In this document: positions 17,384 to 23,509 of the stretch, in pieces
Layout of the letters: every line of letters starts with the position of its first letter
How positions within the stretch are numbered: position 1 is the first letter of the stretch
Notes under the pieces: model-generated
The model's database searches: none
What the model saw: the letters and a program-made list of their open reading frames with translations, nothing else
Told to the model about the DNA's origin: nothing
IMG/VR virus record: IMGVR_UViG_3300010429_001617
Strand: one strand, 5' to 3'
Origin: a virus
Lineage: Duplodnaviria > Caudoviricetes
DNA length: 64,000 nucleotides
Translations under genes and position numbers: made by a program

Positions 17384-18313
17384 ATGTTAAGCGAAGTATC
17401 GATTGAAATTAGAAGAACTGACGATATAGAAAATATTTATAATTATCTTATCGATCAGGGATATGGACTTGATAAAAAAAGAATGTTAAGTTATGGTGTG
17501 AGATATATATGGATACATTCTGTCTCGAATATAACTTATAGTAAAAGCGGCACCAAATGGAATAATTATGAAATAATGAATTTTGATGAATTTAAAAATA
17601 GAATCGATATTCAAAAAAATAGAAGAAAAAAACAAAATGTAGAAGAAGATCCTTGGAATGAAGAGGACTGGGGTTACGTCGAGGAAAAGAAAAACAATTA
17701 TAATTTTCAAATAGGCGAAAAGGTCAGATTAAAAAGAAGCGTTAAACATGAAATATATGGAAGACCTATTTTGGCTCTATCAAATGCTAAAGGTGAGATA
17801 GGCGTAATAGAAGAAATATTCGATGAAGATAAATATGCCTATAAAGTGAAGTGGAAAAATGGTTTTGTTGACCGGTATTCAAAAGATGAAATAGTTCCAG
17901 CCTTAAAAACAACGAGATTATTAAAATTATCCGACGATCCTTGGGGTGAAGAAAACTGGGGATTTGTTAAAGAAAATGTTAGTGATTTTGAATTTTTGAA
18001 AGACTATAACATATTATATTCCACATATGATGAGATGTTTGATATAGCTAAGAAGTTGGTGGAAATCGGATTTGATGTATATGGATATAGTTGTGAAAGA
18101 GATAATAAATTGGAACATGAATGGTATAAATGGAATTGTTTTGTATGGTCACCAAACAAGTATTTTGTTCAATCGAGAATAAATCGTGATTTTAAAAGAA
18201 TGGATTATGATGATTTTATAAGAATCACTGGAGGGGCAATAAGAAAAAGAAAATTAAAATTAGAAGATGATCCTTGGGGTGAAGAAAACTGGGGATATAT
18301 AGAAGATGATTAG
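17384..18313 (+). CDS. Three-module protein, each module ending in a DPWGEENWG-type tag
   Basis: EEDPWNEEDWG, SDDPWGEENWG and EDDPWGEENWG; the middle module is SH3/KOW-like (FQIGEKVRLK...GEIGVI...YKVKW). Confidence 0.7.
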   Translation: MLSEVSIEIRRTDDIENIYNYLIDQGYGLDKKRMLSYGVRYIWIHSVSNITYSKSGTKWNNYEIMNFDEFKNRIDIQKNRRKKQNVEEDPWNEEDWGYVEEKKNNYNFQIGEKVRLKRSVKHEIYGRPILALSNAKGEIGVIEEIFDEDKYAYKVKWKNGFVDRYSKDEIVPALKTTRLLKLSDDPWGEENWGFVKENVSDFEFLKDYNILYSTYDEMFDIAKKLVEIGFDVYGYSCERDNKLEHEWYKWNCFVWSPNKYFVQSRINRDFKRMDYDDFIRITGGAIRKRKLKLEDDPWGEENWGYIEDD

Positions 18314-18969
18314 GACATCTTATCTTTTAATGCCTCTCCTATTACTTGAATAAAAGTCTTTAAATCCGGAACATTTGTATCAAAATTATCTTCGTTAATT
18401 CTGAGAGTTATAACAAAATCATTCTTTCCTTCCTTTTTAACATAAAGCTCAACTTCATCTGAATTATTTATAGTCAAAACAAAGTGAAAAAATAAACTCT
18501 TACAAGGCATCACTTTAACTCTTGGATCATATTTGACACCGGTTACTGAAATATCTTTAACATTATTTTTATTGAGCCAATCATTTATTATAAAAGAAGG
18601 TTGTTTGATGAACTCAGATAATATTTTTATATTGTCTCCGAATTTGTTGTTTTTTATGACACTAGACCATTGATTTTTAAAATCATTTATATCATCAAAA
18701 AATTTTTTTTCATACTGACAATTTATGTCATAGAGATATTTGAAAGAATAATTTTTTTCTTTGGTGACAAGAAGTCTTTCTTTTTTATCATCCACATTAA
18801 ACATAAGTTTAGTATAAATAATAACTTGATCTTTTGAAAATAATTTATTAAAGAAAAGTATTAGTCTTAGAATGCCGTCCTTTTCTTCATAAACTGAATT
18901 TGTATATTGTATTTCGCTTCCAGCCATTACTTCACGAATAGCTTGCTCAATGTTTTGAATTGTTATCAT
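18310..18969 (-). CDS. Hypothetical protein
   Basis: 219 aa ORF. Confidence 0.65.
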   Translation of the reverse strand: MITIQNIEQAIREVMAGSEIQYTNSVYEEKDGILRLILFFNKLFSKDQVIIYTKLMFNVDDKKERLLVTKEKNYSFKYLYDINCQYEKKFFDDINDFKNQWSSVIKNNKFGDNIKILSEFIKQPSFIINDWLNKNNVKDISVTGVKYDPRVKVMPCKSLFFHFVLTINNSDEVELYVKKEGKNDFVITLRINEDNFDTNVPDLKTFIQVIGEALKDKMS

Positions 18970-18976
18970 TAGATAA

Positions 18977-19156
18977 TTATCTTAAATTTATTCTTTCTTT
19001 TATTTGATAGGGTAGATCTTTTTTTATTTTTTCCTTTCCAAACATTTTATCCCTGTTCTTTATTGCTTCCTTTTCCTGCTTTTTATACTCTTCTTCTGGA
19101 GTTAATTCTTTTCTTCTAAAAGGGTTGAATTCTTCGAAAGTTCTTATGTTTTCCAT
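18977..19156 (-). CDS. Small protein with leader MENIRTFEEF (not in the ORF track)
   Basis: 59 aa, translated by hand; TAAATATATA box upstream. Confidence 0.6.
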   Translation of the reverse strand: MENIRTFEEFNPFRRKELTPEEEYKKQEKEAIKNRDKMFGKEKIKKDLPYQIKERINLR

Positions 19157-21896: not shown

Positions 21897-21980
21897 AATT
21901 AAATTATTATTTTTTTTTTCATTATATATTAAAATATGAATGTTGTAAAAAATTATTTTAACATTTTAATATATAGATTT

Positions 21981-22733
21981 ATGAAATTCTTGAAAATATA
22001 TGAGCAATTTGAACTGGATGATGATCCTTGGGGTGAAGACTCACCAAGAAAATATACATTTGGAGAGTGGTTTAAGGAAAATTATGGAAATAAAGATCCA
22101 CTGACAATAAAGACAATTGATTGCTATAATAATTCTCTGACCAGTCTCGATGAAATAGAAAACTTGATAAATCTTAGGGAGTTATCTTGTCATCATAATT
22201 CTCTCACCAGTCTCGATGGAATAGAGAACCTGATAAATCTTGAAGAGTTATATTGTTCTAATAATTCTCTCACCAGACTCGATGGAATAGAGAACTTAAT
22301 AAATCTTAAAGTGTTATATTGTTATAATAATTCTCTCACCAGTCTCGATGAAATAGAAAACTTGATAAATCTTAAAGCGTTATCTTGTCATCATAATTCT
22401 CTCACCAGTCTCGATGGAATAGAGAACCTGATAAATCTTGAAGAGTTATATTGTTCTAATAATTCTCTCACCAGACTCGATGGAATAGAGAACTTAATAA
22501 ATCTTAAAGCGTTATCTTGTTCTGATAATTCTCTTGTCAGCCTTGCGGGAATAGAGAACTTAATAAATCTTAAAGTGTTATATTGTTATAATAATTCTCT
22601 CACCAGTCTCGAGGGAATAGAAAACTTAATAAATCTTAAAGTGTTATATTGTCATAATAATTCTTTCTCTGATGAATATAAAGTTCATTTAAAAGATCAT
22701 TGTAAAAAAAGAAATATAAAATTGTACATATGA
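21981..22733 (+). CDS. Leucine-rich-repeat protein (22-aa units) with leader and DDPWGED tag
   Basis: MKFLKIYEQFELDDDPWGED followed by (NNSLTSLDGIENLINLKxLxCx)n; the real start is probably 21981. Confidence 0.9.
   Translation: MKFLKIYEQFELDDDPWGEDSPRKYTFGEWFKENYGNKDPLTIKTIDCYNNSLTSLDEIENLINLRELSCHHNSLTSLDGIENLINLEELYCSNNSLTRLDGIENLINLKVLYCYNNSLTSLDEIENLINLKALSCHHNSLTSLDGIENLINLEELYCSNNSLTRLDGIENLINLKALSCSDNSLVSLAGIENLINLKVLYCYNNSLTSLEGIENLINLKVLYCHNNSFSDEYKVHLKDHCKKRNIKLYI
22122..22667 (+). repeat. Eight near-identical 66-nt coding repeats plus a partial copy, with 198-nt higher-order periodicity
   Basis: Units start at 22122, 22188, 22254 ... 22650; units 2 and 5 are identical. Confidence 0.9.
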
Positions 22734-23509
22734 ATCACCTGAAACTATATGAACAATTTAGATATGGTAGAGAACCAGATCTTCGTAGAATGACAAATAT
22801 TGTTAGATGTGTCAAAAGAAATTATGAGCCATATTTTACACTAAACAGATATTATGACGTTAAAATATGGGGAAATCCACAAAGGGCAATAGAAGAATTT
22901 CATATAAATGATTATATTCCAGTTGAATGCGTTTCAAAAATCAGGATAAAATCAAATAGAAGTGATTCGCTGGAATTAGATTTATCTAAAAAACAAGATT
23001 ATAATTTCTTTTTCGATTACTTTGAGTTAGCTGATGGAAAAAAGATGAAAAGAAAACAAAATTTGGAAGATGACCCTTGGAGCGAAGAAAATTGGGGATA
23101 TGAGGAGATAAAAGAAAATTCACAAAATGGTGTGATATCATATAATACCACAAGACATATGAATGATAATGAATTATTATCATTATTAAAGAAAAAAATT
23201 ATTGGAAGAACCATAGATTTTCACGCTTTATGTGAAACTGGTAGAGGAAAAAATATAATACACTATAGAATTAAAGATATAAGAGATTTTTATGTTAAAG
23301 ATGTTTATATTGGTGACGGCGATTTTATTTTCATAGAAGGCGTCGGCAAATATGATGACGATAAGAAATATGAAGCCAGTTATATTTTGAGTAAGACGGC
23401 AGATATATTTTATTCACTAACGAGCGAAGAAATAGAAAAAAGAAGGCAATTAACAGATTTACATAAAGAAGAAGATCCTTGGGGTGAAGAAAATTGGGAA
23501 ATCAATTAA
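22730..23509 (+). CDS. Two-module protein with leader MNHLKLYEQF and two DPW tags
   Basis: EDDPWSEENWG and EEDPWGEENW. Confidence 0.7.
   Translation: MNHLKLYEQFRYGREPDLRRMTNIVRCVKRNYEPYFTLNRYYDVKIWGNPQRAIEEFHINDYIPVECVSKIRIKSNRSDSLELDLSKKQDYNFFFDYFELADGKKMKRKQNLEDDPWSEENWGYEEIKENSQNGVISYNTTRHMNDNELLSLLKKKIIGRTIDFHALCETGRGKNIIHYRIKDIRDFYVKDVYIGDGDFIFIEGVGKYDDDKKYEASYILSKTADIFYSLTSEEIEKRRQLTDLHKEEDPWGEENWEIN

Follow-up and report, generated by a model that had tools for sequence, protein, structure and literature searches.

An undescribed short peptide at module boundaries in huge-phage proteins: a possible address or junction signal, perhaps for head loading of proteins

The stretch of phage DNA considered here (IMG/VR record IMGVR_UViG_3300010429_001617, Caudoviricetes; 64,000 nucleotides, referred to in full as the window) raises the question of why one short acidic peptide with the core DPWGEENW recurs at the ends of unrelated protein modules, in some cases several times within a single open reading frame (ORF). 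This peptide, called the tag below, is a functional short linear motif selected at the protein level. It marks the C-terminal boundary of small modules that fold independently, and it has the look of a previously undescribed signal for addressing or for junctions, with head loading of proteins as one possible role. The safest statement is that this linear motif is specific to the lineage, under functional constraint and placed at module boundaries, and that about one gene in 12 carries it.

A DNA pattern for DPWxEE(N/D)W matched the window five times, against 0.00 expected from 100 shuffles. The full copies read DPW(G/N/S)EE(N/D)W, with three in an ORF of 309 residues (P0001) and two in an ORF of 259 residues (P0002), and a shorter form stands near the N-terminus of a leucine-rich repeat (LRR) protein:

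17384..18313, plus strand: P0001, 309 residues, three modules (alpha/beta, SH3-like, alpha/beta) with a tag closing each, from translation and BLAST clustering
17621..17686, plus strand: tag copy 1, RRKKQNVEEDPWNEEDWGYVEE, basic patch and core, then V-E-E
17909..17974, plus strand: tag copy 2, TTRLLKLSDDPWGEENWGFVKE, core, then V-K-E
18242..18310, plus strand: tag copy 3, C-terminal, RKRKLKLEDDPWGEENWGYIEDD, then stop
21981..22733, plus strand: LRR protein, leader MKFLKIYEQF then ELDDDPWGEDS, promoter-like box at 21967-21975
22730..23509, plus strand: P0002, 259 residues, two modules, leader MNHLKLYEQF, its start overlapping the LRR stop
23042..23116, plus strand: tag copy 4, internal, KMKRKQNLEDDPWSEENWGYEEIKE, then I-K-E
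23468..23506, plus strand: tag copy 5, C-terminal, EEDPWGEENWEIN, then stop

In P0001 the tags read EEDPWNEEDWGYVEE (D89), SDDPWGEENWGFVKE (D185) and, before the stop, EDDPWGEENWGYIEDD (D296), at spacings of 96 and 111 residues. The first tag of P0002 reads EDDPWSEENWGYEEIKE, and only 3-6 residues follow the final copy in either protein; the short N-terminal form in the LRR ORF (21981-22043) is MKFLKIYEQFELDDDPWGEDS. A previous sequence-only reading of this locus had placed three tags in 17384-18313, two in 22730-23509 and one after the LRR leader, with YVEE, FVKE and EIKE following the internal copies, and all of these were found in the translations. The basic patch that it described ahead of the tag (RRKK, RKRKLK or KMKRK) precedes three of the five full copies.

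The tag consensus is (K/R)(K/R)(I/V/K)-x-(N/S/T)-(L/P)-(D/E)-x-D-P-(W/Y/F)-G-E-E-(D/N)-W-(G)-(W/Y), and BLAST sorts the modules that lie between tags into 15 or more unrelated clusters, the two largest being an alpha/beta family and an SH3-like barrel, the latter with weak, sub-threshold Pfam hints (MIB_HERC2, DUF4926, SH3_13). An AlphaFold2 (AF2) prediction for the whole of P0001 was poor (mean pLDDT, the predicted local distance difference test, 51.6), with segments below 50 that include all three tag regions, and the tag alone, predicted from a 33-sequence alignment, had no secondary structure. Because the tag regions are low-confidence linkers and the modules beside them belong to many clusters, the tag is taken as a linear motif in linkers and tails, not as one domain. 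The proposal that the tag closes unrelated modules is borne out by these clusters and by the varied enzyme families that carry it in a related genome, described below. A single folded domain family containing the tag, which the same reading had named among the findings that would overturn it, is ruled out by the at least 15 clusters, the differing flanks with several Pfam enzyme families, and the linker-like AF2 segments.

Searches of Pfam, PHROGs, PDB sequences and the ESM Atlas returned no family for the window modules or the tag. The Pfam family DUF3768 (PF12599) scored 21.5 bits against the tag, under its gathering cut-off of 25 and over only 26 residues that cover the tag, with partial matches at residues 85-110 of P0001 and 319-341 of the protein P0007; an unrelated plasmid family may have a short motif of similar kind, or the match may be due to chance. 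A literature search with the motif strings gave unrelated eukaryotic matches only and no paper in a phage context, in agreement with the earlier remark that no function had been described for the tag.

Beyond the window, a scan of IMG/VR with the tag DNA pattern gave 14 loci on seven contigs, and the related contigs hold 34 distinct tag copies, both between modules and as the ending of free-standing proteins, some 100 residues long, that terminate in RKRKLNLEEDPWGEENWGWE and a stop; in one of the longer ORFs, of at least 644 residues, five tags link the modules. A tag profile of 33 copies, searched against 1.84 billion representative proteins at E <= 1e-3, recovered 100 protein clusters in metagenomes, most with several copies and the extremes with 12 copies in 1537 residues, 10 in 1162 and 8-9 in 958. 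Median tag spacing among these matches was 112 residues and the most frequent form was DPYGEEDWGYEEIKES; a cluster look-up attached no names to the 100 clusters. Contigs of IMG/VR from many different samples contain the exact string DPYGEEDW, in 114 stretches, and the DNA pattern had zero matches in 185,579 prokaryote genomes. There were no tags in the sister huge phages LR756502, LR745206 and LR756500 or in Flavobacterium phage MaF61, nor did tblastn of a 10-tag protein against a GenBank phage set return anything. The tag marks module ends in one sub-lineage of Bacteroidota-type huge phages, namely LR756501 and its relatives.

The closest complete genome used for comparison is that of LR756501, a 735-kb uncultured phage, in which 45 of the 67 window ORFs have homologues at 30-75% identity. 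A six-frame search of LR756501 for DP(Y)GEExW found 105 copies, against 0 for the reversed pattern, and the tags occupy 87 of about 1033 ORFs (about 8% of genes). Of the 102 copies within called ORFs, 41 are C-terminal, 43 internal and 18 placed right behind an N-terminal leader (MIKKFKLFE type), and 28 of the 41 C-terminal tags have exactly two residues past the W. The genome-wide positional check that had been proposed for the motif places it at C-termini, post-leader sites and inter-domain sites in this genome. A protein of 1179 residues has tags at residues 40, 430, 508 and 583, which set a cytidine-deaminase-like domain apart from an HD-domain CCA-adding enzyme, and further tagged enzymes include a nucleotidyltransferase, a phosphoribosyltransferase-like protein, a methyltransferase and a GNAT acetyltransferase.

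To what level, DNA or peptide, this constraint applies can be read from codon usage. Across 28 tag copies the Asp, Gly, Glu and Asn codons match background usage, and the Pro codon is CCT in 25, though CCA is usual for Pro (61%). In the window and related loci the NcoI-type site CCATGG was observed once against about 11 expected, CATG is depleted (234 observed, 538 expected), and Pro-Trp pairs outside the tag prefer CCT by 14 to 1. Genome-wide avoidance of CCATGG and CATG, which probably reflects restriction-site avoidance, thus makes Pro-Trp nearly always CCT-TGG and explains the bias in the tag Pro codon. No conservation was found in the DNA 3' of C-terminal tags, and since this DNA is unconserved and synonymous sites are at background, selection is on the peptide.

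The relation between single-module and multi-module proteins is apparent from their ends. In several LR756501 gene pairs the C-terminal tag finishes in W-(D/N)-D-stop, with the DNA GATGATTAA, and shares nucleotides with ATGATTAAA, where the following gene, itself leader-bearing, begins with MIK. Past the tag, fused ORFs continue with residues (EEIKENKKLNDF and similar) that match these leaders. One such protein, P0006, retains a whole leader internally: its stretch NKLLKYKSFNYINEQSIENFYVGQ is plainly homologous to MNILKFNTFNSVNEQDDNGFYVGQ, with which a stand-alone paralogue starts. P0005, a homologue of P0001 at 44% identity, has modules 1-2 only and stops there, module 1 of P0002 is also found in P0012, and natural stops often come right after hydrophobic-x-Glu-(S/N), as in ISEN-stop and VQESKN-stop. 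From the tag-leader junctions, the overlapping genes, P0006 and P0005 it follows that multi-module ORFs are in-frame fusions of tandem genes, or else that the separate genes are fissions of multi-module ORFs. The basic unit is a leader-module-tail gene; such genes are arranged in tandem, the stop codon of one often overlapping the start codon of the next. P0001, P0002 and the arrays, which reach 12 modules, are such units fused in frame, so that a junction reads as a tail plus the next leader. Leaders resembling the capsid targeting sequence (CTS) of phage T4 co-occur with the tag in the same LR756501 ORFs (odds ratio 3.9, p = 7e-4).

The sequence following internal tags is also restricted. 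In metagenomic multi-module proteins [LIVM]-x-E, counted within 12 residues past the tag and concentrated at offsets 2-4, follows 205 of 257 internal tags (80%) against a background of 18%, with the consensus (I/V)-(Q/K)-E-(S/N); the corresponding window sites are VEE, VKE and IKE. The hydrophobic-x-Glu site first noticed in the window follows internal tags of this set far more often than chance would give. It had been likened to the sites cut by T4-type prohead proteases, and a gp21-type enzyme, together with a catalytically dead paralogue of it, is found in LR756501:

LR756501 73913-76336 (L067:13913-16336): head maturation protease, 807 residues, phrog_207 5e-27, Pfam S77 just under threshold
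LR756501 11314-11850, minus strand: dead head-protease paralogue, 178 residues, ending DPYGEENWSE

The protease gene sits between those for the portal (phrog_213) and the gp23-like capsid protein, and the catalytic His, Ser and Asp are invariant in 34 homologues; the enzyme type assumed by the earlier reading therefore exists in the lineage. Its C-terminal half consists of about 12 tandem YIAE-based repeats followed by a Gln/Ala-rich and acidic stretch, a region that looks like a self-destructing scaffold built of its own cleavage sites. In the 178-residue paralogue the catalytic His is replaced by Tyr and the Ser-Ser pair by Arg-Pro. In a complex prediction, residues 1-235 of P0113, a homologue of the protease at 75% identity, were paired with the junction at 17885-18049 of the window; the score of 0.00 weighs neither way.

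The genomic setting of the tag genes is in part that of virion structural genes. In LR756501 tag genes occur within the sheath-baseplate operon, and 15 of the 87 fall in the 550-575-kb bin that holds the baseplate wedge gene and the counterpart of a window gene for a 901-residue protein (19191-21896, 67% identity). Two leader-module-tail genes on the coding strand lie there between the orthologue of window ORF 18310-18969 and the wedge gene, and in the window P0001 fills that slot on the opposite strand. Upstream of P0001 stands a promoter-like box:

17370..17378, plus strand: TAATATATA, promoter-like box, 6 nt upstream of P0001

This box occurs 17 times in the window against 5 expected, nearly always just upstream of ORF starts (examples at 12762, 17370, 21923 on the minus strand, 21967, 28298, 32318, 47770 and 62734), and at distances of 5-35 nt it precedes P0001, the LRR-P0002 pair, the 120-residue ORF at 14215 and the 901-residue gene. 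The same box is the top-enriched upstream 8-mer in LR756501, where it precedes the protease, the counterpart of the 901-residue gene, the wedge gene and baseplate operons, and it is likely to be a phage promoter, perhaps a late one.

The reading tentatively preferred here, which we would place somewhat short of an even chance, is that the tag serves as an address or docking peptide, common to many proteins and tied to head assembly, and that fused forms are cut at the site following it. The tail would dock many different proteins to one common partner, most likely in the assembling head, where it would act beside the T4-CTS-like N-terminal leaders; the gp21-type head protease would cut fused forms at the hydrophobic-x-Glu site 2-4 residues past the tag, and each module would then keep its own tag. 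A more elaborate version of this reading, which we regard as unlikely, is a two-part address code, in which a CTS-like leader and a C-terminal DP(W/Y/F)GEE(D/N)W tail would load about 100 proteins into the head for co-injection, including tRNA-repair and modification enzymes and fast-shuffled small modules, with tandem genes being freely fused and their junctions cut by the head protease.

Several observations weigh against head loading with cleavage. Both cleavage and packaging are purely inferred from sequence. In LR756501 only 23 of the 59 internal tags have [LIVM]-x-E after them, where the background is 20%, which indicates that the hydrophobic-x-Glu site is not an obligatory part of the tag, and a C-terminal tag with two residues after it would have nothing to gain from cleavage. 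The CCA-adding enzyme, methyltransferase and GNAT protein flanked by the tag need not be virion proteins. Searches with PF03420 and phrog_207 found no head protease in the window, which is a part of its contig, or in the five related contigs G001-G005. The sister genomes share head machinery with LR756501 and are free of the tag, so this machinery does not require it. Finally, the promoter-like box is not enriched at tag genes of LR756501, where it precedes 13 of 87 against 138 of 946 others.

The main rival, possible though rather doubtful, is that the tag is an uncleaved hub-binding motif acting in the infected cell, where it would tether many phage proteins, enzymes among them, to a single partner of high abundance, from phage or host (for instance a clamp-like hub, a scaffold or a compartment), and that fused ORFs remain as beads on a string. 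The occurrence of tags at N-terminal, internal and C-terminal positions is typical of hub-binding linear motifs, the tag is predicted to be disordered, and its place beside tRNA-repair and modification enzymes, together with the weakness of the post-tag site in LR756501, would be accounted for more readily in this way. Further, with a tail fixed at two residues, what is recognised would seem to be a peptide end or a complete motif and not a cut site. However, no candidate hub was identified, hydrophobic-x-Glu-(S/N) is strongly and positionally conserved at multi-module junctions, and tag genes are embedded in tail and baseplate operons.

A second candidate enzyme gives rise to a further, improbable explanation, in which a dedicated phage polyprotein system, not the head protease, frees the modules. 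Its gene lies beside the largest tag arrays:

LR756501 283618-284037, L030:14142-14555 and L032:11539-11946, minus strand: retropepsin-like aspartic protease, D-T-G

The protein has 135-139 residues and matches PF13650 and PF13975 at loci L032/L033, with weak PF13650 only at L030/L031. Its gene is convergent to, and overlaps the end of, proteins with 3, 10 and 12 tags in LR756501, L030 and L032, in a locus flanked by an SbcCD-like fusion and a ParB-like gene, with the tag array there varying from 3 to 12 modules among relatives. This adjacency favours the explanation, although the three loci are syntenic and so amount to a single observation, searches of the window and G001-G005 gave no homologue, and most tags occur in single-module proteins. 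An aromatic-Pro junction is typical of retropepsin sites, and the tag is without one. A third peptidase, of family M28, is common to the window and G001; it is unlikely to be the processing enzyme, since M28 is an exopeptidase family.

It is quite improbable that SH3-like modules bind the Pro-aromatic tags in trans and so form a multivalent network or condensate, for example an inner body or viral factory; SH3-like barrels are among the commonest tag-adjacent modules and valency reaches 12, but many tagged modules are not SH3-like and the Pfam SH3 matches are under threshold. A DNA-level repeat or recombination anchor for cassette shuffling, which the CCT codon in 25 of 28 copies and the clear shuffling of modules among ORFs might suggest, is largely refuted and very improbable, given that CCATGG avoidance and the 14-to-1 preference outside the tag account for that codon, the remaining synonymous positions are at background, the non-coding DNA downstream of C-terminal tags is unconserved, and the W, Y and F variants preserve the peptide pattern and not the DNA.

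Comparison with described systems places the tag close to several of them and within none. The T4 CTS ends in IAE. CTS leaders are 10-20 residues long, and T4-family proteases cut after Glu at a three-residue motif (PMC5694885). As with the CTS and gp21 of T4, a short common peptide is borne by unrelated proteins with a hydrophobic-x-Glu site alongside and a gp21-family protease in the lineage, and the tag phages have CTS-like N-terminal leaders of their own, such as MKTYLEFLNE. The tag differs in being C-terminal or internal and, in the present proposal, retained, whereas the CTS is N-terminal and removed, and in its sequence, an acidic Trp core behind a basic patch; the tag is not an N-terminal propeptide of 10-20 residues, as only its short core follows leaders. 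The large heads of giant phages of the phiKZ and SPN3US type contain internal or ejection proteins by the dozen, which are cleaved behind the Glu of a three-residue motif, and SPN3US-type phages have an inactive head-protease paralogue (PMC5694885), as LR756501 also does; their propeptides are, in contrast, long and not a shared linear tag, and no repeated tail motif is described there.

Among systems outside phage heads, encapsulin cargo-loading peptides are short, usually C-terminal, borne by unrelated cargo, and dock inside an HK97-fold shell. The tag resembles them as a short peptide on unrelated proteins; the tag sequence is unrelated to theirs, and concatenated cargo is not an encapsulin feature. 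Polyvalent proteins, according to the passages describing them in Iyer et al. 2017 (PMC5512222), have 2-15 domains, are often encoded beside virion genes, and are predicted to be packaged and sometimes processed, and the LR756501 deaminase joined to a CCA-adding enzyme through tags may be compared with them. In those passages no shared junction motif is given, and in the whole paper the word linker occurs 0 times (PMC5512222); the modules here differ further from the proteins so described in being mostly small domains of unknown function, with no MuF, portal or metallopeptidase fusions. With retropepsin-cut viral polyproteins the tag proteins share one ORF with many modules, a conserved junction and a D-T-G gene beside the largest arrays, and their ORF architecture would fit a viral polyprotein. 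They differ in belonging to a double-stranded DNA tailed phage and in having the same units also as separate genes, and a role for the protease on them is a candidate only.

Regarding the wider setting, the window has a G+C content of about 29% and encodes tRNAs, a glutamyl-tRNA synthetase (GluRS), SmpB, a baseplate wedge protein (phrog_219) and large tail-type proteins. The homing endonuclease and GluRS genes lie immediately downstream of the tag-gene cluster:

23914-24927, plus strand: GIY-YIG/NUMOD1 homing endonuclease
24940-26541, plus strand: GluRS, complete
36728-37186, plus strand: SmpB, Pfam 1e-51

The contig G001 (IMGVR_UViG_3300010429_001696, 194 kb, from IMG/VR) has 104 of its 246 ORFs in common with LR756501 and nearly nothing in common with the window; since both share ORFs with LR756501 and not with each other, they are different genome fragments of one sub-lineage. 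CheckV rates G001 as 92% complete, yet it is without head genes and its 104 shared ORFs scatter across the 735-kb genome, and it is probably a piece of a far larger genome.

Four variants of the tag had also been listed in the window, and all four sequences are real, of which the forms at 13853 and 30290 probably belong to another family:

13853..14215, minus strand: ORF of 120 residues ending DEDPFGEDS-stop, a look-alike, probably of the DPFGE(D/E) family
26543..26650, plus strand: remnant of an LRR-type N-terminus with leader and tag, frameshifted between MKYIKLYEQ and DSWGEDTPRE
30290..30508, plus strand: ORF of 72 residues with EDPFNEDS, like the N-terminal part of the DPFGE(D/E) family
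37696..37872, plus strand: ORF of 58 residues ending DVDPFDVDEW-stop

In the DPFGE(D/E) family the motif is an internal loop (homologues at 190311 and 190768 of G001), and the ORF at 13853-14215 probably belongs there and not with the tag proper; DVDPFDVDEW at 37696-37872 is possibly a diverged C-terminal tag. LRR orthologues with the identical type of N-terminus are found at L007, L010 and L014 and in G001, and the LRR match in LR756501 is weak and generic only, which counts against the LRR protein, the upstream neighbour of P0002, as a candidate receptor of the tag. In G001 (L018-L027) more than 12 small paralogues start with MKHLKLYEQ(F/Y)DFEDLSDEELFG, in which DFEDLSDEELFG is a second acidic-aromatic segment directly after the leader, where others have DDPWGE(D/E):

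G001 37701, 38027, 38368, 72968, 104746, 144335, 186689-188392 and 193228: example genes with this start

P0007 and P0011 have a further common tail in the C-terminal 56-64 residues after the last tag, reading EEYEGGPP-x-KEPLI(I/V)KHIGEID and then a very acidic run. In LR756501 and G001 there are small ORFs paralogous to separate pieces of the major capsid protein, which is gp23-like; the pieces come from its N-arm, its middle and its C-terminal part, and some of the ORFs have the tag at the end or inserted inside:

LR756501 542326, 552409, 276342, 145891, 565330, 564998 and 730457, and G001 114820-115530: paralogues of major capsid protein fragments

Should the tag be an address peptide, it would provide a sequence rule that sorts the roughly 1000 genes of a huge phage by one destination, most likely that of virion cargo injected with the DNA, and most of the unknown genes of such genomes could then be sorted in this way. 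Loading of foreign proteins into large capsids would gain a second targeting peptide, a portable one, and these phages would offer a case of polyprotein expression in a bacterial virus in which gene fusion and fission are interchangeable. Whatever the destination, a single linear motif that is carried by 8% of a phage proteome and is absent in sister phages is a handle for finding its receptor through comparative genomics and pull-down.

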